Source of the DNA: Candidatus Colwellbacteria bacterium
GTDB lineage: Bacteria; Patescibacteriota; Minisyncoccia; UBA6257; Colwellbacteraceae
Reading direction: 5' to 3'
Assembly: GCA_016176505.1 (NCBI GenBank)
Contig: JACOXB010000006.1
Location: 7,240-71,239 of the forward strand
Length of the DNA stretch: 64,000 nucleotides
The number at the start of each line of letters is the position of its first letter. The stretch's first letter is position 1. Both the position numbers and the translations under genes were made by a program. Positions 1,771 to 57,592 of this stretch are shown here, piece after piece. Under the pieces are notes generated by a model. That model saw nothing but the letters and a program-made list of their open reading frames with translations, did no database searches and had not been told where the DNA came from.

Positions 1771-2997
1771 ATGCCTTTTAGATTCAGACCTCCTAAAATT
1801 AGACGCCCCAGAATCTTTAAGCGGAAAGGGGTCGGAAAGCCCGAGATTATTATTGGCATTCCCTCTTATAATGAAGCCGAGAATATCGGTATTTTAACCC
1901 AGATTCTTGACCAAGGGTTGATTAGGTATTTTCCTAATAAACGAGCGCTTATTATAAATGTTGACAATAACTCTTCTGATGGTACTAAAAAGGCCTTTCT
2001 CTCAACTAAAACTAAAACCCCCAAGCGTTACATTAGTACCGCGCCCGGAGTTAAAGGCAAGGGGCGGAATATTAAAAACCTTCTTGAATATTTTTTGAAT
2101 ACTGAATCAGCCGCGGCTCTGATGACGATTGACGCCGATGTTACGGCGGTTGATCCGAAGTGGGTTAAAAATCTTTTAACGCCAATTTTTAAAGGGTTCG
2201 ACCACTGCTTGCCGATTTACCGAAGGAGCGAAGATGATGGTTCGATTACCAACCACTTAGCTTATCCGATTGTTCGCGGTATTTTGGGCGTGGAAATCCG
2301 TCAGCCCATCAGCGGCCAGACCGCTCTTTCGCGTAAAGCGGCGGACCGGATTTACAACCGCCCTTGGCCGAACTGCGCTTACGGCTTTGGCATCGATGCC
2401 CTAATGACTTTGAGCAGCGTTTTTGGCGAGCTAAAGTTGTGTCAGGCGTATCTCGGAACAATTCACCACAAGCCGGTTAAGTTAGAGGACCCATTACTCT
2501 TTAACGAAGTGGCGGCTAGTCTCTTTAGTCTATTAAACGTTCAAAAACAGCTTTGGCAATGGTCAACCCCAATGAGGGTTCGGAGGCCGCCCGTTTTTTT
2601 CGAGGCTAATCACGGGAGCGAGGCGCCTAAAATGGGCATCGCCTACCGTGAATTAAAGGAAATTGTACTAGCCGAGTTTAGTAAGTATAGAAAAGAGATT
2701 GAGGCAATTGTCGGGAAGGATGTCTTTGGTTATCTTTCCCAGAATTTTGGAAAGGGCGGCGATTTAAACATAGATGCCGAACATTGGGCTGCGATTTTGA
2801 GTTGTTTTATTAAAAACTCAAGAACTCATCATCTAAAACGAGCTAAATTCTTAAGGCCGCTTTACCTGGGTCGTTTTCTCACTTTTTATAAAGATTCACT
2901 CGATAAATCGAGAGAAAGAATTGAAGAGGCGATTCTGGCTCAGGCCGCTCTCATCTTTAAGGAGAGAAAGAAATTTATTGATTTCCCTAAAGTTTAA
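1771..2997 (+). CDS. Family 2-like glycosyltransferase
   Basis: IIIGIPSYNEAENIG N-terminal GT-A signature and a DADV (DxD) motif. Confidence 0.55.
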   Translation: MPFRFRPPKIRRPRIFKRKGVGKPEIIIGIPSYNEAENIGILTQILDQGLIRYFPNKRALIINVDNNSSDGTKKAFLSTKTKTPKRYISTAPGVKGKGRNIKNLLEYFLNTESAAALMTIDADVTAVDPKWVKNLLTPIFKGFDHCLPIYRRSEDDGSITNHLAYPIVRGILGVEIRQPISGQTALSRKAADRIYNRPWPNCAYGFGIDALMTLSSVFGELKLCQAYLGTIHHKPVKLEDPLLFNEVAASLFSLLNVQKQLWQWSTPMRVRRPPVFFEANHGSEAPKMGIAYRELKEIVLAEFSKYRKEIEAIVGKDVFGYLSQNFGKGGDLNIDAEHWAAILSCFIKNSRTHHLKRAKFLRPLYLGRFLTFYKDSLDKSRERIEEAILAQAALIFKERKKFIDFPKV

Positions 2998-3021
2998 AAG
3001 GTCGAGTCGATTATTAATTCA

Positions 3022-3444
3022 ATGAAGAAAGAAAATACTTTAATTGTTTCTGCTCTGCTTGTCATTGTTCTGGGTTTGGCTTGGTATCTTTGGTTCGGCG
3101 GCAAGGACGTGGTAAATGCGGATAAGGTCTCGGCGGTTGACCAGGCCGCTACCGATCGAATTACGGTTGAGAGCGTCAATCTTAAAGAGCCAGGCTATGT
3201 GGCGATTTACGCTGATAGCGGCGGCATGCCGGGTGAAATGCTCGGCAACGGCGAACTTTTGGTCGGTCGGCACAAAGATGTAGTTGTTTTTTTGAAGCGA
3301 GAAGCGAAGCAGGGTGAGACGCTTTACGTGATTCTTCACCGAGATGATGGTGATGGCGGATTTGAGTTTCCGGGTCAAGATGCGCCGGTAACTGACGAAA
3401 CCAGTCGAATAATTCTTGATTCCTTTGTTGTTTTAGAGAGCTAA
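3022..3444 (+). CDS. Membrane-anchored hypothetical protein
   Basis: N-terminal TM helix and coherent ORF. The antisense ORF 3040..3378 is judged spurious. Confidence 0.45.
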   Translation: MKKENTLIVSALLVIVLGLAWYLWFGGKDVVNADKVSAVDQAATDRITVESVNLKEPGYVAIYADSGGMPGEMLGNGELLVGRHKDVVVFLKREAKQGETLYVILHRDDGDGGFEFPGQDAPVTDETSRIILDSFVVLES

Positions 3445-3489
3445 AACGAAAGGTCGGGCGAATTCGAGATTGATTAAAGAATTAAATCA

Positions 3490-3738
3490 ATGCTTAATAA
3501 AAAAGCTTTTGGTACAGCTGTCGCTGTTTTTAACGCCATTTTTTGGCTGGTGGCCATGTTTTTCTCCCTTGTCACCGGCGTTGGCGAAATTACCCTAACC
3601 ACGATTGGCTCTTTCTTCCCGTTTTTCGAGTACTCGTGGCTGGGGATGCTTGTCATTGTGGTTGAGCACATTGCCCTTGGTTTTCTCGGCGGTTGGGCGT
3701 TTGCCTGGTTCTACAATCGCTTTAATAAATCAGCTTAG
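3490..3738 (+). CDS. Small integral membrane protein (hypothetical)
   Basis: Two or three hydrophobic helices, 82 aa. Confidence 0.4.
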   Translation: MLNKKAFGTAVAVFNAIFWLVAMFFSLVTGVGEITLTTIGSFFPFFEYSWLGMLVIVVEHIALGFLGGWAFAWFYNRFNKSA

Positions 3739-3756
3739 TCTAAACCGCTTCCGGGA

Positions 3757-5367
3757 ATGGATTCTTTGAGCGAACTTAAGCGGGTTATTAAAGGCGAGGT
3801 TTTACGAGCGCCCGAGGTTCTTGATAAATACAGTGAGGACGCAAGTCTTTTTAAGATCAAGCCTCAGGCGGTTGTTTTTCCTAAAGACGCGGCTGATTTA
3901 GGAGCCCTGGTTAGATCCGGTTTTTCTTTATCGCCTCGAGGCGGAGGGAGCGATATGACCGGCGGCCCCTTGACCGAATCAGTCGTTGTTGACCTTACTA
4001 AGCATTTCAATCGCATCGGCGAGATTAAAGGAAATCGAATTTCGGTTGAGCCAGGCGCTTTTTACCGGGATTTTGAAAAAGAAACCTTAAAACACAACTT
4101 GCTTCTGCCTTCTTTCCCAGCCTCACGCGAGCTTTGCACTTTAGGCGGCATGGTGGCGAACAACGCTGCTGGCGAGAAAACTTTAAGCTACGGTAAAACC
4201 AATCGTTATGTTAAGTCCTTAAAGGTTATTCTCCGGGACGGCAATGAATATTTCTTCAAGCCGCTTAATCAAAAAGAGCTTACCGAGAAGCTCGAATTCA
4301 ATAATCTTGAAGGGGAAATTTATCGCGGAGTTCATAAACTAATTAACGAAAACTACGAAGCGATTCAAGCGGCAAGGCCGAAAGTTTCTAAAAACTCGGC
4401 TGGTTACGCTCTGTGGGATGTTTGGGATAAAAAAACTTTTGATTTAACCCAGCTTTTTACTGGCTCCCAGGGGACGCTCGGCATTATTACTGAAATTGAA
4501 TTTGAGCTTGTCCGGCCGAAACCTTACTCAAAAATGCTTATTATTTTCCTCCGTAATACCGAATCTTTGGCCGAGATTATTAATCAGGTACTTCGCGAAA
4601 AGCCAGAAACTTTCGAATCTTATGATGATCATACTTTAAGTCTGGCCCTCAAATTCCTGCCCCAATTTGTTAAATTACTTAAAGGAAATATTTTGGGGGT
4701 TGCTTGGAAGTTTTTGCCGGAATTCAGGATGATTTTAACCGGCGGAATGCCCAAAATGGTTTTAACGGCCGAATTTACCGGCGACGATCCGGCCGAAATT
4801 GAGGCAAGAGCAAGGATTGCCAGAGCGGCGCTCGAACCCTTCGGAGTGAAAACGCGGATTACTAAATCTGCTAAAGAAGTTGAAAAATATCATTTAATCA
4901 GGCGGGAGAGTTTTAATCTTTTGCGCCACCGCCTTAAGGGGAGAAAGGCCGCGCCCTTTATTGACGACATTATTGTGAGGCCTGAAAAACTGCCGGAATT
5001 TCTGCCCGAACTCGATAAAATTCTCGACGAGTATCCCAGCCTTATTTACGGTATGGCTGGGCATATTGGCGATGGCAACTTTCATATTTTCCCCTTAATG
5101 GATTTAACTGATCCCAAGACCAGAGAAATCATCCCGGCCTTAATGGATGAAGTCTATCGTTTAATTCTCCGGTTCGGGGGCTCGCTTACGGCTGAACATA
5201 ATGATGGCTTGCTTCGAGGGCCGTATTTAAAACAAGTGTACGGCGAAAAAATTTATCACCTATTCGAAGAGGTAAAACGTATTTTTGATCCGGAAAATAT
5301 CTTTAATCCCGGCAAAAAAGTGGGTACGAGTTTAGAATACGCTCTGGCTCACCTAAAAAGCGGGTGA
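3757..5367 (+). CDS. FAD-linked oxidase (GlcD / D-lactate dehydrogenase-like)
   Basis: PCMH-type FAD-binding N-terminus (GGGSDMTGG) and C-terminal FAD-oxidase domain. Confidence 0.7.
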   Translation: MDSLSELKRVIKGEVLRAPEVLDKYSEDASLFKIKPQAVVFPKDAADLGALVRSGFSLSPRGGGSDMTGGPLTESVVVDLTKHFNRIGEIKGNRISVEPGAFYRDFEKETLKHNLLLPSFPASRELCTLGGMVANNAAGEKTLSYGKTNRYVKSLKVILRDGNEYFFKPLNQKELTEKLEFNNLEGEIYRGVHKLINENYEAIQAARPKVSKNSAGYALWDVWDKKTFDLTQLFTGSQGTLGIITEIEFELVRPKPYSKMLIIFLRNTESLAEIINQVLREKPETFESYDDHTLSLALKFLPQFVKLLKGNILGVAWKFLPEFRMILTGGMPKMVLTAEFTGDDPAEIEARARIARAALEPFGVKTRITKSAKEVEKYHLIRRESFNLLRHRLKGRKAAPFIDDIIVRPEKLPEFLPELDKILDEYPSLIYGMAGHIGDGNFHIFPLMDLTDPKTREIIPALMDEVYRLILRFGGSLTAEHNDGLLRGPYLKQVYGEKIYHLFEEVKRIFDPENIFNPGKKVGTSLEYALAHLKSG

Positions 5368-6291: not shown

Positions 6292-7470
6292 TTAATTTTT
6301 AATGATTGTTTCGACCTTTTCCCGGCGCCTGATTAATCTGGCGCGGTTCGCCTCTATTAAAACCTCAGCTGGACGCGGTCGCAGATTATAATTCGAGCTC
6401 ATGCTAAAGCCATAAGCCCCGGCATTTAAGATAGCGAGCGCGTCTCCGATTTTAGGGAGGGGGATAGGCCGGTCTTTAGCAAAGAAATCAGCTGATTCGC
6501 AGATATTTCCCACAATTGAAGCTTTAATTTTCTTGCCTCCTTGTCGGCTCAAATTAACTATTTCGTGGTAACTATCATACATGGCTGGCCGAATCAGGTG
6601 ATTAAACCCCGAGTTTACGCCGATAAAAACTTTTGAAGGGTTAATTTTGATGTCTGTGACTGTGACGAGCAGGGTGCCGGCCTCAGCGATTAAATAGCGG
6701 CCTGGTTCGAAAACAAAATTAAGCTTTCGGCCATAAACCGCCTCAAATTCTTTTAAGATCTTAACTACCGAGCGGCCAAGGCGATTTAAATCAAGAGGTT
6801 TTTCATTCGGTCGATAGGGGATGCCGATCCCGCCGCCAAAATCAATAAATTCTAAATCAGGAAAGCGTCGAGCGGTATGAAGCAGGGCCATCATTGCCTC
6901 AATGAATATTTTTTTATTTTCGTTAAGAATACCCGAGCCAATGTGCTGTTGGATTCCATTTACGGTGAGCTTGTATTTTTTAGCGAGAGCCAAAGCCTTA
7001 TTAATTTGGCGAACATCAATGCCAAATTTACTTTCTGGTCCGCCGGTAATGAAGTGATGGTGATTGCCGGCGCCAATACCTTGATTGACCCTGAAGCTGA
7101 TTGATGTGCCAGGTGCTAGCTCGCCCCACATTTTAATCTGGTTAAGCGAATCAAGGTTTACCCTGATTTTTCTCTTGTTAAGAGTTTCGAGCTCCTCCTT
7201 AGTGATATTACTACAGGTATAAATAATATCTTTTGGTTTAAATCCGGCCTTGAGTGAAATTAAAACTTCGCCAAGACTGACAGTTTCCGCTCCAGCCCCG
7301 AGCTTTCTTAAATACCTTAATATCTCGAGATTACTATTAGCCTTAACCGCATAATGAATTCTCAATCTGGGGTGATTAAGATTTTTAGCCAGTTTCTGAT
7401 AGCGGTCTTTAATAACCCTGGCTTCATAAACATAAAGCGGAGCACCGTATTTTTTAACCAGACTTTTCAC
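6292..7470 (-). CDS. lysA: PLP-dependent fold-III decarboxylase, probably diaminopimelate decarboxylase
   Basis: HYAVKANSN lysine-PLP motif, GGG loop, size typical of LysA. Confidence 0.75.
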   Translation of the reverse strand: MKSLVKKYGAPLYVYEARVIKDRYQKLAKNLNHPRLRIHYAVKANSNLEILRYLRKLGAGAETVSLGEVLISLKAGFKPKDIIYTCSNITKEELETLNKRKIRVNLDSLNQIKMWGELAPGTSISFRVNQGIGAGNHHHFITGGPESKFGIDVRQINKALALAKKYKLTVNGIQQHIGSGILNENKKIFIEAMMALLHTARRFPDLEFIDFGGGIGIPYRPNEKPLDLNRLGRSVVKILKEFEAVYGRKLNFVFEPGRYLIAEAGTLLVTVTDIKINPSKVFIGVNSGFNHLIRPAMYDSYHEIVNLSRQGGKKIKASIVGNICESADFFAKDRPIPLPKIGDALAILNAGAYGFSMSSNYNLRPRPAEVLIEANRARLIRRREKVETIIKN

Positions 7471-7504
7471 TAATTAATTTTAGCTAATAAATAGGTTTAA
7501 ATAA

Positions 7505-7531
7505 AAAAACCATCTTCGAAAGATGGGCGGG
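7505..7531 (-). terminator. Rho-independent terminator (minus strand) between the GC-rich element and the lysA start
   Basis: Minus-strand reading ccatctttcgaagatgg followed by ttttttt; a second GC hairpin lies immediately upstream. Confidence 0.5.
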
Positions 7532-8300
7532 GGGCGGGAGGTTCCTGAGAACCCCCCGCCCCCGCGGCGACCGCGGAGGGGTGCGGTCGGGGGCGACGGA
7601 AGGGCCCGGCGGACTCGTAACGAGCAGCTCGGGGAATGGGCACGGGTCAGGCCGCCCGCCAACAGGGCCCACACAGGCCCTCCGTCGTGGTGGATGGCGG
7701 CTGCGCGGCTACCATCCCACCGGGATGAGGAGAAGTCGGTCAGAGCCGACCGCGGTGTTGCTCGAGGGACGCCTCGCCCCTGAAAGGCGTCCACCGCGCT
7801 ATGCCTGCGTCTCGGCCCGTCCGGGATCCGGGCAGCGCTAGGCTTCGGGTCGGCCGAAGGACCGAGCATCTCCTCATCGCTTTAGCGGAGAAAGACTCCG
7901 CCAAGACGTATCATATTGCTCAAGGTGCGGGCGCTCCAACTTATGTCGGAGTGGATGGGGGAGTAAGACAGGACGAGGGACGCCCTGCTTCTTGGAGGAG
8001 AAGGGTTTGGGCATCCCTACCGGGGGAACCTCCCACCATCCAATTTAATTGTGGCCGAAAAGCAGTCTAGCTGTCAATTGGGGATAAGGAGCTCGAACTC
8101 ATCTCCTCAAGAACGCTCTCCGCTCGGATAAATAAACCCTCACTCAGCCAAAAAAGGGTGAAGCTGCTCACGGACTCAACCAATCTAAGGATACCCGACG
8201 TCCTTAGATTGGGATTTAAACATCGTTCGCCGCTCTTCTTCTTAGTGGCCTCGTTCGGTTATTTCCAACCTCGCTCCGAGATGTTCTTTACGGAGACAAG
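7532..8300 (-). ncRNA. GC-rich, hairpin-dense non-coding segment; candidate large structured RNA of unknown class (boundaries approximate)
   Basis: GC is about 65-70% against ~45% background. All six frames are open with Pro/Arg/Gly-rich pseudo-ORFs. Many perfect hairpins (ccaatctaaggacgtcgggtatccttagattgg; gacgcctttcaggggcgaggcgtc). Ends at a minus-strand terminator. I could not find RNase P or tmRNA consensus motifs. Confidence 0.3.
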
Positions 8301-8317
8301 TTCTCGCTTATTTAATT

Positions 8318-8599
8318 TCAGGAGTTATTTTTCTCTTTCGGTTTCCGGATAATATAGGCCGTGATAAGTACCAGGACAATAGTGATAATAATAGCGTAGA
8401 AAAATTTAGCCGCGATTGTATTCTGTTTTAATGGGAAAAGATATTCGATTAGAGTTTTGATAGCATCGTTCCAAGCTAGGCCAACCACTAAGCCGAGGGC
8501 CGCCGCAATATAGGTACCTACTTTTGTTCCAACTTCCCGTTGGAGCCCTTTGCCCCCTTCAGTTACTTTCTTAATGCCTTGTTTTACTTTAGTCGTCAT
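8318..8599 (-). CDS. Small membrane protein (hypothetical)
   Basis: 93 aa with two TM helices and a charged N-terminus. Confidence 0.45.
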   Translation of the reverse strand: MTTKVKQGIKKVTEGGKGLQREVGTKVGTYIAAALGLVVGLAWNDAIKTLIEYLFPLKQNTIAAKFFYAIIITIVLVLITAYIIRKPKEKNNS

Positions 8600-8632
8600 G
8601 CGGATAGAGCATACTAATTTGTTTGGGAAAAA

Positions 8633-8660
8633 TCAAAAGGGCCTGTCGGGCCCTTTTGAT
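8633..8660. terminator. Bidirectional terminator hairpin
   Basis: aaaagggcc tgtc gggcccttttga, with T/A tracts on both sides. Confidence 0.5.
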
Positions 8661-8661
8661 T

Positions 8662-8850
8662 TTATCTGCGGAAATTGTTTCTTCGAGGATTGTTCTTTCG
8701 ATAACAGTCCCGACAATACACCGGCCGACCGTCGGTCGGTTGAAATGGTAATTCGGTAACGGCTGCGCCACAGTCGGCGCAAGTCCATTCTCCTTTTACC
8801 CATTCACCCGGCGTCCGTCGGAAAGTCTCTCCGCCCTGATTTTCCTCCAC
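8662..8850 (-). CDS. Zinc-ribbon small protein
   Basis: CxxC-x20-CxxC (WTCADCG ... YCRDCY). Confidence 0.45.
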   Translation of the reverse strand: MEENQGGETFRRTPGEWVKGEWTCADCGAAVTELPFQPTDGRPVYCRDCYRKNNPRRNNFRR

Positions 8851-15809: not shown

Positions 15810-16271
15810 ATGGCGAAAAACAAATTGTTCGTTGGTTTGATGGTCGGAGTGGTTGCCTTGAGTCTCTTGGGTCTCACCGGTCTTTTTAATGTGCCTTTCG
15901 GCGGCTCTGACAATTCATCCGAAGATAACAGCGGCCCCAAAAGCGTTCCTTGTCTTACAAGTGAGGCTTTCCACATTCATCCCGAACTAACCGTTTTAGT
16001 TAACGGCCAAAAAGAGGCTGTTCCGGCGAATATCGGCATTGTGCCTGGTTGCACTCGCGAGCTTCACACCCACGCTACTGACGGGGTGATTCACGTCGAG
16101 TCAGCGGTTGACCGGGGTTATGTTTTTACTAACTTTCTCGCGGTCTGGGGTAAATCGCTCGAGCGAGGAGGCTATGACTTAAAAATAACTGTTGATGGCG
16201 CCGAAACAACCGATCCGAATTTTATCTTAAAAGACGGTCAAGAAATTATTCTCGAATATACTAGTTTATAA
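15810..16271 (+). CDS. Secreted hypothetical protein
   Basis: Signal peptide; coherent 153-aa ORF. Confidence 0.45.
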   Translation: MAKNKLFVGLMVGVVALSLLGLTGLFNVPFGGSDNSSEDNSGPKSVPCLTSEAFHIHPELTVLVNGQKEAVPANIGIVPGCTRELHTHATDGVIHVESAVDRGYVFTNFLAVWGKSLERGGYDLKITVDGAETTDPNFILKDGQEIILEYTSL

Positions 16272-16277
16272 ACTATC

Positions 16278-16319
16278 ACAGAATATTATAACATTCTACA
16301 GAATGTTATAATATTCTGT
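16278..16319. repeat. AT-rich 42-bp palindrome, family P, copy 1
   Basis: acagaatattataacattct a cagaatgttataatattctgt; related copies at 22870, 39032, 57078. Confidence 0.65.
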
Positions 16320-16339
16320 ACCAAGGCTTAAAAGTAATA

Positions 16340-16403
16340 AAAAAGACCCGCGTTGCGAATCTTACGGAGAGAGCGGTCCGATTCAAATCGGACCGCTCTC
16401 TCC
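16340..16403 (-). terminator. Hairpin terminator downstream of the minus-strand zinc-ribbon gene
   Basis: ggagagagcggtccgat tcaa atcggaccgctctctcc is a 17-bp perfect stem; a T-tract follows on the minus strand about 20 nt later. Confidence 0.45.
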
Positions 16404-16409
16404 TTCCGT

Positions 16410-16871
16410 TCAGTCCCGGTCCCAGCCGTTCGCGACCAGCGTGACCGTTCCCTCCCCAGGAAGGTACGCATCACGTGGGAGATAGTCGTCAGTGCCGGGG
16501 ATCCTAACGGTCTGCAGGCCCATCTGTTGGACCGCCGCCTCGATCTGCTCCGGCCGAACTCGCCGTCGGGCTTCTTGGATCACCTCGTCGAGGAACTCCT
16601 TCGGCACCCGCGAGAGCACGCCGCACTGGGGGCAGTAGAGTCCTGGATCGAACCCGACTGATCCCTGAACGATGTATCTGAGGTTCGTGCCCCCCCGGGG
16701 CGAGAGCTCAGTCCCCATTTCGTGCTCGAACTGCGCGTGGCAGACTGGGCAACTCATCTGCGTTCTGCAGACGAGTTGCGGCCTGGCGTTGAGCGGTCCG
16801 CCGGAACCTCTGGCCTCGATCGAAAACTTCAGAACATTCATCCGTTTCACCTCCCTCCGTTCACTATTCAC
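16410..16871 (-). CDS. GC-rich hypothetical protein with two CxxC pairs (zinc ribbon)
   Basis: CPVC ... CPQC. GC is about 60%. The start codon is uncertain. Confidence 0.4.
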   Translation of the reverse strand: MNSERREVKRMNVLKFSIEARGSGGPLNARPQLVCRTQMSCPVCHAQFEHEMGTELSPRGGTNLRYIVQGSVGFDPGLYCPQCGVLSRVPKEFLDEVIQEARRRVRPEQIEAAVQQMGLQTVRIPGTDDYLPRDAYLPGEGTVTLVANGWDRD

Positions 16872-22869: not shown

Positions 22870-22914
22870 TATTATAACATTATGTATAATCACATTATAC
22901 AGAATGTTATAATA
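22870..22914. repeat. AT-rich palindrome family P, copy 2 (variant with central CAC and TATAAT in both arms)
   Basis: tattataacattatgtataat cac attatacagaatgttataata. Confidence 0.6.
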
Positions 22915-22979
22915 ATTATTTTACGTAGTTGCGTATGTAAAAATGAGAAGGACCCGCGGGATGTCCTTCCCAACGGGTC

Positions 22980-23270
22980 CTAGACCAGTGCGCCGAGCTC
23001 GGCGAGAGCCGCTTCGATCTGGTTCTTCTTGACCTTGATGGCGGCCGATGCCGCCTCACGCCGGCCCTGAGCTTTCGCCAGTTCGGCCGCAGCGGACTCC
23101 ACGTTGTAGTACATGTTGTGGTCGTCCCGACGGTGGGTGCCGTCCTTGAGGGCTTGTTGCCAGAAGTCGTAAGACCTCTTGGTCTCGGCGTACTCCACCT
23201 GCAGTTCGATCAGCTCGTTCTGGAGTCGTACGACTTCCAACAGCTTCGCGACCTGCTCGGTCACGTCCAT
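22980..23270 (-). CDS. GC-rich coiled-coil hypothetical protein
   Basis: 96 aa, about 60% GC, heptad-like sequence. Confidence 0.4.
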   Translation of the reverse strand: MDVTEQVAKLLEVVRLQNELIELQVEYAETKRSYDFWQQALKDGTHRRDDHNMYYNVESAAAELAKAQGRREAASAAIKVKKNQIEAALAELGALV

Positions 23271-23504: not shown

Positions 23505-23906
23505 TTGTCCCTTAGCAACTCGGAGAGGGACCGGTTGAAGGAGGCAATCGTGTTCGTCGCCTACGGCTTTATCATCAAGCCGGTCAAGGGTCCGTTCTAC
23601 AACCATCCGCCCCTTGGCACGGGCGATATCCTGAAGCTCCGGAAGCTCTTCCCCGACAACCCGATCTGGCAGGCCAGGACCAGTGGGGTCGGCAACGCCT
23701 ACCACCCGACGCCGGAGCAAGCACGTGCCTTCTACTACGCGTTGAAGGCCTACGCCGAGGCGCACGAGGTGAGCAGCGAGCAGTACCCAACTGGCAACAC
23801 CACCGGGCGGTTTCTCGTCTACAGCGATCTCAAGTCTGTCTTCGACGACCTCATCCCCTTCTTCGAGGACGAGCTCGACCTCCCGCGCACAAGGCGCACA
23901 GCCTAA
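23505..23906 (+). CDS. GC-rich hypothetical protein
   Basis: 133-aa ORF, about 60% GC; a hairpin plus T-tract follows at 23945-23970. Confidence 0.4.
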   Translation: MSLSNSERDRLKEAIVFVAYGFIIKPVKGPFYNHPPLGTGDILKLRKLFPDNPIWQARTSGVGNAYHPTPEQARAFYYALKAYAEAHEVSSEQYPTGNTTGRFLVYSDLKSVFDDLIPFFEDELDLPRTRRTA

Positions 23907-24011
23907 CGGCCCGCATGCGGCACAGTCTTATGGAAAGACTCGCCCCGCGTGCGGGTTTTTCCATTTAGAGAGGAAAGGGAACATATCTCTTGGTGTATAA
24001 TTTGAGTTAGA

Positions 24012-28731: not shown

Positions 28732-28933
28732 TACCTGCTCAGTAATCGATTATACCTTTACCAATTTCTTAATCTCTGGTATTAATAATTCAGGAGACAA
28801 CTGGGTCTCATGGATCTTTGAAAGGGGTGAATATTTTGGAGCTTTGGATTATCGTTGTCGGCGCCCTAGTTCTAGTGGTCCTGCTCGCCAATCTCGATCG
28901 AGGAGGTGGCTGGTGGCTGTAAGCGAAAGGACC

Positions 28934-29164
28934 GTGCTGAAGTGGTACATTGGACTCGCGATCGCAGGTCAGGTGGCGCTGGTCCTCGTTGCCGTGGCTG
29001 GGTCTATCGCGACGGTCGTTGTCGGTGCTCACTGGCTTGGTGTGGTAGCGATCCTGCTTTTCGCCGGGTTCTTCTTCGTCATCGTCACGCAGGCCAAGAG
29101 GTGGTGTCGAGGAGAGCTCGCCAAGCTCGACCGTCGAGAAATGAGAGGGATGACCAATGGCTGA
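28934..29164 (+). CDS. GC-rich small two-TM protein (hypothetical)
   Basis: Putative GTG start; two hydrophobic helices; about 62% GC. Start and coding status are uncertain. Confidence 0.3.
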   Translation: MLKWYIGLAIAGQVALVLVAVAGSIATVVVGAHWLGVVAILLFAGFFFVIVTQAKRWCRGELAKLDRREMRGMTNG

Positions 29165-29420
29165 GACGCGTTCGAGCGAAGCCGTTCGAGCCATAGCCGA
29201 GAGGCATCACAGCCAACGGCGCTCGGGATCCTGGAACAGGCACAGCTCCGGGAAGTTCGACTTCTGTTCGAACGCTGAGTGCGTTCGGATGCGCGCGGCG
29301 ATCAAGGCCCTCGAAGAGCTCGAGGTCGAAGTCGAGCGCCTTAAGGCCGAGATACGCGTACTTCAGCAGGGTTCGAGCATGCCTATGCCCGACCCTAGCG
29401 AGAAAGTGGAAGCGCTGTAG
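29157..29420 (+). CDS. GC-rich small coiled-coil protein (hypothetical)
   Basis: 87 aa with C-terminal heptad repeats, followed by a GC-rich multi-hairpin at 29425-29468. Confidence 0.35.
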   Translation: MAETRSSEAVRAIAERHHSQRRSGSWNRHSSGKFDFCSNAECVRMRAAIKALEELEVEVERLKAEIRVLQQGSSMPMPDPSEKVEAL

Positions 29421-29474
29421 GGCGCTTCCCACGCGGCCCCCGGAAGGCCCGCCTTCTGTGGGGCCTTTCCGTTT

Positions 29475-29503
29475 CTGACTTCTAAAGATTTTAACTCTAT
29501 AAT
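29475..29503 (+). promoter_or_regulatory. Sigma-70-like promoter for gltX
   Basis: CTGACT, then 17 bp, then a perfect TATAAT, 7 bp before the ATG. Confidence 0.45.
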
Positions 29504-41638: not shown

Positions 41639-41657
41639 AAACAACTAAGGAGTATAA

Positions 41658-41700
41658 AAACGCGAAAGCCCCTGGACGCGGGAGCAGGAGCTCTCGCGTC
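41658..41700. terminator. Bidirectional GC-rich hairpin between convergent genes
   Basis: cccctggacgcgggag caggag ctctcgcgtccagggg. Confidence 0.5.
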
Positions 41701-41708
41701 CAGGGGCA

Positions 41709-42200
41709 TCAGAGGTACTGACCAGGGTGACCGGCGTCGTCGGTGGTCTTGGGCCCATCAGGGCTCTGGGTTTGGAAAGGAAACGGAATTCCCACCACGA
41801 TCGGGATCGGTCCCGATTCTGCTTTAGGTTCGGGTTCAGACCAGACTACAGTCCAGTCCTTCCGTATGCTGACTGAAGGGGTGGCCCAGAGCTCGAAGGC
41901 GGCGTCGATTGAGAGCCGGAAGACGCCGAGGATCAGCCTTGACTCGCGGCGGAGCCTGGCGGCTCTTTGCGTTAGTCGCTCTCGCTCAGCTTTGTCAGTT
42001 GAGCGGTTAGCAGCGACGAAGTTCTCGAAGCCGTCTTGATCGCGCCGGATCCCCAGGGTGTAGAGCTTCTTGAGGTCGAGGTCGGACAGTCGGCCGACGA
42101 CGTGGTCTCCGTCTTCAACTTCTGTGTCCGGCTCGATTAGATTCTCCTCGCTCATTTCCTCGAGTTCTCGCTGGATAAGCTCCAGCCAAGGTGCGCCCAT
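41709..42200 (-). CDS. Hypothetical protein (GC-rich, 163 aa)
   Basis: Coherent ORF at about 58% GC. Confidence 0.35.
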   Translation of the reverse strand: MGAPWLELIQRELEEMSEENLIEPDTEVEDGDHVVGRLSDLDLKKLYTLGIRRDQDGFENFVAANRSTDKAERERLTQRAARLRRESRLILGVFRLSIDAAFELWATPSVSIRKDWTVVWSEPEPKAESGPIPIVVGIPFPFQTQSPDGPKTTDDAGHPGQYL

Positions 42201-45825: not shown

Positions 45826-46137
45826 ATGGGCAGTGTCGTGGAAGATGCGATCATTCAGCAGTTCACGAGAGTCTTCGGCGAGGAGAGCGTCGTCTACTTG
45901 ATGGGCGGCGAATCCAAAGAAGTGGCGGTCAGGAAGATGCAGCTCGCTTCAGAGCTCGCTCGCGAACTCGCCCGACAGAATGTCAGTGAACCAGTGATCT
46001 CAACCTGGTTTACAAGAGAAAGTCCGAGGCTCGACGGCCAGAAGCCGCTCGAGTTTCTGGCGGAGAAGTCGGTTCAGGAGGCCCGGGCAGAGCTCTGGGA
46101 ACTGGTTAGGGCTGGGATCGACTACGATAAGATGTAG
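45826..46137 (+). CDS. DUF2384 (Xre/MbcA/ParS-type) antitoxin-like protein
   Basis: C-terminal WFTRESPRLDGQKPLEFL ... VQEARAELWELVRAGIDY resembles the DUF2384 toxin-binding domain. About 60% GC. Confidence 0.45.
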   Translation: MGSVVEDAIIQQFTRVFGEESVVYLMGGESKEVAVRKMQLASELARELARQNVSEPVISTWFTRESPRLDGQKPLEFLAEKSVQEARAELWELVRAGIDYDKM

Positions 46138-46145
46138 GAGGTGCG

Positions 46146-46463
46146 ATGAATAATTCTCCGGTGCCGGTAATTGAGGTTGAGGAGTTGAGGTACGGCAGGA
46201 TAAAGTACCAGGTAACGGCTTTGGTCTGGCCGAACCTCTGGCTGCGTTACGCGCGGACTTGGCACGGGGCGATTCGCCTCGTCGAAGAGTTCGGCAGGAG
46301 GCTGGAAGCTCGGGGTGTGCGCGTCATCGGCATCGGGGTGTATCTCGCGAGGCCTCCCGCCACCTGGACGCCGTCGACGCCGTTGCCGGGCGGCCGGGAA
46401 GCTCCGATCCGTGGCGGGCCTGGTCAACCATACCCTCCGGGCATGCTGGAGGAGAAGGAGTAG
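46146..46463 (+). pseudogene. Possible degraded partner toxin gene (pseudogene?) downstream of the antitoxin
   Basis: The first ~65 aa look protein-like, then Pro/Gly-rich low complexity. No intact RES-type domain recognised. Confidence 0.2.
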
Positions 46464-46645
46464 CTTCATCCTCTTGGGGTGAAGCTACTCCAAGAGGATC
46501 TACGGTGTTATATTATTTTCAATAATAATCGGCGTTTGCTGCCAGTCTCGGCCAATAAGATAACCAATACCAAAGCTTAAAAGACTAATTAAGAATACTA
46601 AGAGCGCTATTTGGACATAGGGCTTTTTTATTAAATTACGAATTC

Positions 46646-57169: not shown

Positions 57170-57201
57170 AAAAGGACCCCGACTATAGTCGGGGTCCTTT
57201 T
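57170..57201 (-). terminator. Terminator hairpin at the 3' end of rnpB
   Basis: aaaaggaccccgactatagtcggggtcctttt followed by a T-tract on the minus strand. Confidence 0.55.
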
Positions 57202-57202
57202 G

Positions 57203-57592
57203 TGGAGGCAATCCGTAAGCCGGATTCTGTCGAGGACAGTAATTTATCTAGCTCTTCGATCGCTCTCAGAGTCAAGCGGCACTATCCGACCGAAGTCGGA
57301 CCACGGCCTTGCACTCGGGTAAGGTTTTAGCCGTTTCACTCCAGTCTTTTTATCCCTATAACTGGATTAGGCCGTCTACGTTGGGATCGGGCCTGTCCGA
57401 CCCTTGCAAGTCGGACCGTCACTGTTCGCACCTCTATCCTTACGGACGACGGGCATTACCCGCTACCTTTCTCCGACTATAGTCGGAGTGAGTGTCCGGA
57501 CTTTCCTCCCCATCCTCGAGCTCTAAGGTAAAGAACGATCTTTATCTGGGTTGGAGCTCGTTAGACAGAGCTACTGCCTGGATTACCTCCAG
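57203..57592 (-). ncRNA. rnpB: RNase P RNA (bacterial type A-like)
   Basis: Minus strand contains GGAGGAAAGTCCGGAC (CR-I / P4 5' strand) and GACAGAATCCGGCTTACGG (P4 3' strand / CR-V). P1 pairing is GGAGGTAATCC with GGATTGCCTCC. About 390 nt. Confidence 0.75.

Follow-up and report, generated by a model that had tools for sequence, protein, structure and literature searches.

Small RNAs of the RsaE/RoxS type act in trans, are about 100 nt long and base-pair, through loops rich in C or in pyrimidines, with ribosome-binding sites rich in purines. Larger structured RNAs, such as OLE, ROOL, GOLLD and raiA, extend over several hundred nucleotides and contain many helices supported by covariation, and lysine riboswitches (L-box, RF00168) and other terminator-bearing leaders lie co-oriented and directly upstream of the genes they control. 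To our knowledge, few bacterial non-coding RNAs (ncRNAs) exceed 400 nt and still have no assigned family, and earlier cases of this kind have opened up new biochemistry. Here we describe a locus that resembles each of these systems in part. It is found in a 64-kb stretch of a Candidatus Colwellbacteria contig (JACOXB010000006.1), which was analyzed at its full length of 64,000 nt and is called the window below; all coordinates are those of the window. Between the gene of a small membrane protein with a DUF5654 domain and lysA, the minus strand probably carries, from 8041 to ~7500, a stand-alone gene for a structured ncRNA of an undescribed family.

The predicted gene is delimited by the following signals:

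8048..8087, minus strand: promoter of the RNA gene, with the upstream block TTATCCCCAA, a -35 box TTGACA (8077-8072), an 18-nt spacer and a -10 box CACAAT (8053-8048)
7503..8041, minus strand: predicted RNA transcript of ~540 nt (539 nt, 66.8% GC), from the base of hairpin P1 to the T-run of the terminator
7503..7526, minus strand: intrinsic terminator found in a terminator scan, with a 7-bp stem, a 3-nt loop and a T7 tract

In a promoter scan, TTGACA-N18-CACAAT (8077-8048) was the top sigma-70-like site in 7300-8800 and matched the consensus at 10 of 12 positions. Two homologous loci from other contigs, L091 and L108, have TTGACA-N18-TAAGAT at the same location. The block TTATCCCCArTTGACA is common to the window and L091 and marks the place where conservation begins, and the motif upstream of the promoter has no other occurrence within the window. 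The start of the RNA was placed at ~8041, which is 7 nt past the -10 box and exactly at the base of P1. At the opposite end, the terminator stem CCATCTTTCGAAGATGG (7526-7510) is followed by the T7 tract (7509-7503) and immediately preceded by a GC hairpin of 15-17 bp (7527-7565). Equivalent terminators are present in L091 and in a third locus, L010: their position is kept and their sequence differs between lineages. The locus thus looks, at the sequence level, like an ncRNA gene, with a promoter and an intrinsic terminator on either side of a structured stretch that is conserved and non-coding.

Substitutions within the helices point to the same conclusion. MAFFT/RNAalifold applied to the raw sequences misaligned the window copy owing to its insertions, and we therefore aligned the helices by hand (nine helix segments, counted as six helices, with 74 pairs in four sequences), checking the strand order in each sequence. 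In this alignment, 96.6% of the cells are paired, compared to 39-52% after the 3' partner has been shifted by 1-3 columns. Both sides are changed in 16 of the 74 pairs versus 6.9 ± 1.7 in shuffles, none of 500 of which reached 16, and the shifted alignments give 0-3 such pairs. These double changes are distributed over P1 (5), P2 (1), P3 together with its sub-helix P3d (3), P5 (1), P6 (3) and P7 (3). If the plus strand were read instead, six G-U pairs would turn into A·C mismatches. Together with the promoter and the terminator, these pairs identify the minus strand as the functional one. Folded as the minus strand, 7490-8320 reaches a minimum free energy (MFE) of -386.6 kcal/mol (z = -11.6); folded as the plus strand, it has z = -4.0. 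For the predicted transcript alone, the MFE is -288.7 kcal/mol (z = -8.2 against shuffles), with z = -10.5 for its counterpart in L091.

The same comparison bears on the possibility of a protein-coding gene that is frameshifted or was missed by gene callers. Overlapping open reading frames (ORFs) of 46-129 aa do cover both strands of the GC-rich region, and gene predictors call spurious ORFs there, for example two on the Logan contig L001. However, their products are low-complexity Pro/Arg/Gly sequences. The longest, of 129 aa, has no Pfam match, and the sole match of the 89-aa ORF among 5.8 billion protein clusters is an identical sequence from a contig of the same organism. Furthermore, the window and L091 do not have the same frames, none of the reading frames is conserved, and the indels are not multiples of three. 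We therefore give a coding explanation next to no credence.

The folds of the individual sequences concur in a string of local domains, ordered P1-junction-P2-P3-P4-P5-P6-P7-terminator:

7953..8041, minus strand: P1, a long 5' hairpin (P1a, 8041-8030/7963-7953; P1b, 8013-8009/7985-7981)
7990..8004, minus strand: C/U-rich sequence CCUUCUCCUCCAAGA in the apical loop of P1 (8008-7986)
7921..7932, minus strand: unpaired P1-P2 junction GCCCGCACCUUG, conserved as GCCCGyACCUU in all lineages
7884..7902, minus strand: P2, hairpin GGCGGAG/CUCCGCU with one double change
7724..7878, minus strand: P3 domain, 68% GC, with a closing helix GAUGAGGAGAUG/CUUCUCCUCAUC (inverted repeat I8) that encloses sub-helices
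7721-7689, minus strand: P4, a hairpin of the MFE structure
7687-7594, minus strand: P5, with invariant GACGGA/UCCGUC, one double change at its base and a window-specific insert of 70 nt
7568..7589, minus strand: P6, hairpin CGACCGC/GCGGUCG, in which 3 of 7 pairs are doubly changed relative to L091, L010 and another homologous locus, L107
7527..7565, minus strand: P7, a GC hairpin of very high stability that abuts the terminator (inverted repeats I1, I6 and I7)

All aligned cells of P1 are paired (100%) and 5 of its 16 aligned pairs show double compensatory changes; the window copy has an internal insertion here. The loop sequence CCUUCUCCUCCAAGA, which resembles an anti-Shine-Dalgarno sequence, is identical in the window, L091 and L107 and has a 1-nt deletion in L010. 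One column of P2 is C-G in the window, U-A in L010 and C·A in L091. Within P3, hairpin P3d (7792-7767) accounts for one double change (C-G, U-A, U-G) and the rest of the domain for two; the entire domain is missing from L010. The top of P7 is kept as GGGrGUUC/GAACyCCC and 3 of the 12 pairs of this hairpin are doubly changed. The most GC-rich part of the RNA (7594-7878, 68-73% GC, with 73% in the P4 and P5 region at 7594..7721) is its least conserved part, and the window copy has extra hairpins within P1, after P1 and within P5. The invariant unpaired sequences are the P1 loop (8004-7990), the junction GCCCGyACCUU (7932-7921) and UCCGUC. A long-range pairing of the 5' strand of P1 with the 3' strand of P7 (inverted repeat I3) can be drawn for the window, but it was rejected as it is not conserved in L091.

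The nearest lysA relatives, with 72% protein identity, come from a few uncultured lineages of the Candidate Phyla Radiation (CPR). The homologous RNA loci are as follows:

Type A: L091, L092 and L093, contigs from ENA; the L091 RNA has 451 nt and 63.4% GC
Type B: L105, L107, L108 and L120, contigs from JGI and ENA, 94% identical to type A; the L107 RNA has 462 nt and 64.9% GC
Type C: L010, a metagenome-assembled genome in GTDB; the RNA has 247 nt and 58.7% GC
3' fragments only: L011 and L090, at contig ends

The order DUF5654 gene, RNA element, lysA is common to these loci wherever the contig extends far enough. In L010, P3-P5 are gone and P1, P2, P6 and P7 are kept, with compensated changes in P1, P6 and P7. 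No RNA was found at the lysA relatives of ~60% identity (L094 and L095), which have an rpsT-like ORF or a tRNA upstream instead, or downstream of the DUF5654 relatives in L112-L119. A pattern scan of metagenomes gave three true matches, all L091-like, and four chance matches, and two scans of viral contigs gave nine chance matches and none, respectively. These collection scans demanded exact motif matches, and more distant relatives could have escaped them. A covariance model of the L091-type sequences (R1) found L010 at 85.6 bits and the window copy only as fragments at 22.5 bits; it found no further copy, either in the rest of the window or in the 750 kb of loci that were fetched. Likewise, blastn showed no other copy of the element in the window and no similarity of the RNA region to phage and plasmid records. 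The RNA family appears to be narrowly distributed, with only a few close relatives, and is apparently new.

Several of the homologous contigs have peculiarities of their own. In L105 (JGI C687J35174_10050223), the 3' end of the DUF5654 gene and the 5' part of the RNA are duplicated in tandem (166-291 and 697-821) and give two R1 matches of 156 and 165 bits; this is either an assembly artifact or a real duplication. The locus that follows DUF5654 also varies. In L112 (region 3001-4297), it contains an unrelated gene of 335 aa. In L119 (region 2729-4672), gdh (ELFV dehydrogenase) lies between DUF5654 and the PBP gene, a position taken in the window by the RNA, lysA and a 66-aa ORF. The contigs L010, L011, L090, L002, L005 and L120, which come from several independent assemblies, stop inside the RNA gene, whose GC-rich hairpins seem to break short-read assemblies.

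Whether the RNA is a gene of its own or a part of its neighbors' transcripts depends on the flanking genes and on how lysA starts:

6292-7470, minus strand: lysA, diaminopimelate decarboxylase (Pfam PF02784 and PF00278), flanking the RNA downstream
7482-7477, minus strand: TAAAAT box, 6 nt before the GTG start codon of lysA (7470), the probable -10 box of a leaderless lysA promoter
8318-8599, minus strand: DUF5654 small membrane protein of 93 aa (Pfam PF18898), flanking the RNA upstream

The window, L091 and L010 share the arrangement at lysA, with TAAAAT, a gap of 6-7 nt and a GTG or ATG start codon. A TAnnnT box is found 6-8 nt ahead of the start codon in 15 of 51 genes of the window, a clear peak over background, and a Shine-Dalgarno-like motif in only 4 of 54 long genes. 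This spacing is the dominant one between promoter and start codon here, and most initiation in this genome appears to be leaderless or free of Shine-Dalgarno sequences. Because lysA has the leaderless-type -10 box that is common here, a stand-alone RNA is favored over a riboswitch or an attenuator of lysA.

The alternative is a cis-acting leader of lysA, that is, a new riboswitch-like element or an attenuator responding to a protein or a tRNA, in which the terminator at 7526-7503 would control read-through into lysA according to the level of lysine, diaminopimelate or some other signal. All lineages found have the RNA and lysA adjacent in this order and with the same orientation, and in the window the terminator ends only ~32 nt before the lysA start codon. 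A consensus scan of the window and L091 showed no promoter with both a -35 and a -10 box in the interval from the terminator to lysA. In addition, L119, where gdh replaces lysA at the same DUF5654-PBP locus, has no RNA either, which fits a cis-regulatory role too. However, besides the leaderless-type box of lysA, the architecture of the RNA argues against such a role. The conserved single-stranded core is located 150-450 nt upstream of the terminator, and between the two sit a dispensable domain of variable size and the very stable hairpins P6 and P7. The sequence of the terminator is not conserved, and the folds of the window and its homologues showed no conserved competing helix that could serve as an alternative antiterminator pairing. 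Neither a lysine riboswitch nor a T-box was matched even at E up to 10, and the lysA relatives at ~60% identity do without such an RNA. A leader of lysA is hence unlikely in our view.

The stand-alone gene is nevertheless not free of difficulties. The constant, co-oriented position immediately upstream of lysA, the missing consensus promoter of lysA and the state of L119 all weigh against it. Where the transcript begins, and that it is separate from those of its neighbors, is read from the sequence. The comparison includes only four sequence types, two of them close to each other, from about three lineages, and the helices were picked and aligned by hand, a procedure that favors structure. Finally, no target of the C/U-rich loop was found: its complement has three matches in the window versus 2.1 expected.

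The RNA might also be a structured intercistronic or 3'-untranslated part of a DUF5654-lysA transcript, serving as a stabilizer or an insulator with no separate RNA function. The chain of local hairpins would suit this role, and so would the spacing in L091, where the DUF5654 stop codon is ~13 nt from the -35 box and no terminator follows the DUF5654 gene. However, a strong and conserved promoter sits right at the base of P1, long unpaired blocks are conserved as well, and a compensated multi-domain structure exceeds the needs of a simple stabilizer hairpin. As DUF5654 relatives elsewhere also have no such element downstream, we consider this explanation improbable.

The extent of the stand-alone gene differs from that of the GC-rich sequence in which it was noticed. 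The GC content of the window is 45.8% and reaches 0.68-0.71 over 7500-7900 (200-nt windows). An initial annotation of the window had described a block of ~0.8 kb with 65-70% GC between a small membrane-protein gene and lysA. The location is right and so is the GC content over 7500-7900, but the stretch above 60% GC is only 561 bp long (7487-8047, mean 0.645) and the GC content at 8000-8300 is only 0.49-0.51. The open frames with low-complexity products, the many stem-loops (12 inverted repeats in the GC-rich region), the minus-strand hairpins with a T7 terminator before lysA and the presence of a large structured minus-strand ncRNA, here of ~540 nt, agree with our results, and the comparison of homologous loci that it had proposed as a check yielded the double changes described above. 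Its view of the whole block as one transcription unit does not hold. The block is two elements, an RNA gene and a separate upstream insertion, because the conserved promoter at 8077-8048 separates the RNA gene from ~230 bp on its 5' side, a lineage-specific insertion without a counterpart in the relatives:

8087..8300, minus strand: 213-nt insertion downstream of the DUF5654 stop codon and upstream of the RNA promoter, outside the conserved RNA and absent from L091 and L107

This insertion folds into one long imperfect hairpin (MFE -85.8 kcal/mol), the apex of which is a perfect 12-bp hairpin at 8180-8212 (inverted repeat I5). A possible TA duplication and imperfect terminal inverted repeats were recognized by eye, and no second copy exists within the 64-kb window. 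We regard this window-specific insertion as resembling a miniature inverted-repeat transposable element (MITE). Logan contigs from seven runs stop inside it, at 8129/8131 or 8235.

Seven more islands of high GC content (0.58-0.62 versus 0.46 for the genome) were found in the window, at 1034-1700, 16341-16860, 22942-23226, 23525-23983, 28877-29493, 41640-42143 and 45864-46501. They resemble small genes with their own hairpin terminators and with GGAGG-type ribosome-binding sites, which have no counterpart in the native genes of the window. Pfam searches of the islands gave DUF6381 at the cut-off and weak matches to an Rpf-like transglycosylase and an Xre/MbcA/ParS antitoxin. The islands are probably cassettes acquired horizontally from a high-GC donor. 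They were considered as possible relatives of the RNA and rejected, as they are small GC-rich protein genes. Two of them adjoin an AT-rich repeated motif, ACAGAATGTTATAATA and its variants, at 16270-16320 and 22880-22920.

Given these islands and the adjacent MITE-like hairpin, the RNA sequence itself could be non-functional GC-rich DNA, namely a decaying foreign or selfish insertion, as the initial annotation had also considered. About seven islands of foreign appearance in the same window and the large lineage-specific insertions and deletions within the element are what such an origin would produce. However, decay would hardly leave 16 compensated pairs and 96.6% of the cells paired when the lysA proteins of the lineages compared share only 72% identity, and the promoter, the terminator and the unpaired motifs are conserved along with the helices. 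Nor does the element have another copy in the window or a phage, plasmid or viral match. We hold a decaying insertion to be quite improbable, even more so than a transcript stabilizer.

The stand-alone RNA was also compared with known families. In a search of the whole window against Rfam 15 at the gathering score, the matches were limited to RNase P (57200-57590) and two tRNA-Gln. The region 7300-8700, searched at E up to 10, gave only spurious hairpin matches far below the gathering scores, and the homologues L093 and L010 gave nothing relevant at E up to 5. Upstream of DUF5654, 8629-8663 forms a perfect hairpin that resembles a bidirectional terminator, AAAATCAAAAGGGCC...GGCCCTTTTGATTTT, and the spurious weak matches around this position are due to it. 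Membership of GOLLD, ROOL, HEARO (OMEGA), OLE, raiA or any other Rfam family is not supported, as there was no match at the gathering score or at relaxed E, and neither is the likeness to a GOLLD/ROOL/HEARO class suggested by the initial annotation. Its exclusion of RNase P and its lack of evidence for a transfer-messenger RNA (tmRNA) were borne out: ARAGORN found no tmRNA in the window, Rfam gave no tmRNA match, and the 5' end of the RNA is locked in the local hairpin P1 and its 3' end in P7 and the terminator. An ORF-less intron-like element, also proposed there, is not supported either: Rfam gave no match to group I or group II introns, and the element is intergenic and has its own predicted promoter. 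The lysine riboswitch was matched neither in the window (E up to 10) nor in the homologues (E up to 5), and no Rfam T-box match was obtained in either. A T-box-like string in P4 of the window, GGUGGGAUGGUAGCCGCG, has no conserved counterpart in L091 and is ~190 nt away from the terminator. We found nothing on this RNA in the literature.

The genomes of CPR bacteria are tiny, and only a very small part of them is non-coding. That such a genome keeps a multi-domain RNA of 250-540 nt with 59-67% GC and compensatory evolution implies a real function. In the model that we propose, the RNA would be driven by its own sigma-70-type promoter, and its intrinsic terminator would end it before a separately promoted, leaderless lysA. 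P1, the junction and P2 form the conserved core, and P6, P7 and the terminator a conserved 3' module. The GC-rich P3-P5 behave like expansion segments, as their size differs between lineages and one lineage has none of them. The RNA would probably act in trans via the single-stranded P1 loop CCUUCUCCUCCAAGA and the junction GCCCGyACCUU, which could base-pair with a purine-rich RNA or serve as a protein-binding site; a stable scaffold and a shield for the 3' end would be provided by the GC-rich helices.

A more speculative and rather doubtful proposal is that this is an "ornate" RNA specific to the CPR, being either the RNA core of a ribonucleoprotein, or a ribozyme, with GC-rich domains that grow and shrink from lineage to lineage, or else a wholly new class of lysine- or diaminopimelate-responsive regulatory RNA that travels with lysA. 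In either version, a new recognition site would consist of the invariant C/U-rich P1 loop and the junction. The natural deletion series of 247 nt (L010), 451-462 nt (L091 and L107) and 539 nt (window) separates the core from the expansion. In practical terms, the RNA gene yields spurious "hypothetical proteins" in databases and broken short-read assemblies.

In comparison with described systems, the RNA shares with the lysine riboswitch and with terminator leaders a structured body, an intrinsic terminator and a co-oriented position directly upstream of a lysine-pathway gene. However, it is far larger, has an optional central domain and matches no riboswitch model. Its conserved core is insulated from the terminator by stable hairpins, and lysA apparently has its own leaderless promoter. 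Similar to RsaE/RoxS-type RNAs, it has its own predicted promoter and intrinsic terminator and an invariant unpaired C/U-rich loop, CCUUCUCCUCC, that is complementary to GGAGG-type sequences, with more C-rich loops in P4, P6 and P7 of some lineages. It differs from them in its length (250-540 nt versus ~100 nt) and has no sequence or model similarity to them; its host genome hardly uses Shine-Dalgarno sequences, and no target was found. With respect to OLE, ROOL, GOLLD and raiA, the RNA matches none of their covariance models, has no helix that closes its 5' and 3' ends, being a string of local domains, and occurs in only a few Colwellbacteria-like CPR lineages, in which its central domains are dispensable. 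Also, DUF5654 genes elsewhere come without the RNA, and hence no protein partnership is indicated. Nevertheless, similar to these large RNAs, it extends over several hundred nucleotides with many covariation-supported helices, is far more GC-rich than its host genome, has its own predicted transcription signals and no coding capacity, and, as ole adjoins oapA, it adjoins a gene for a small membrane protein.

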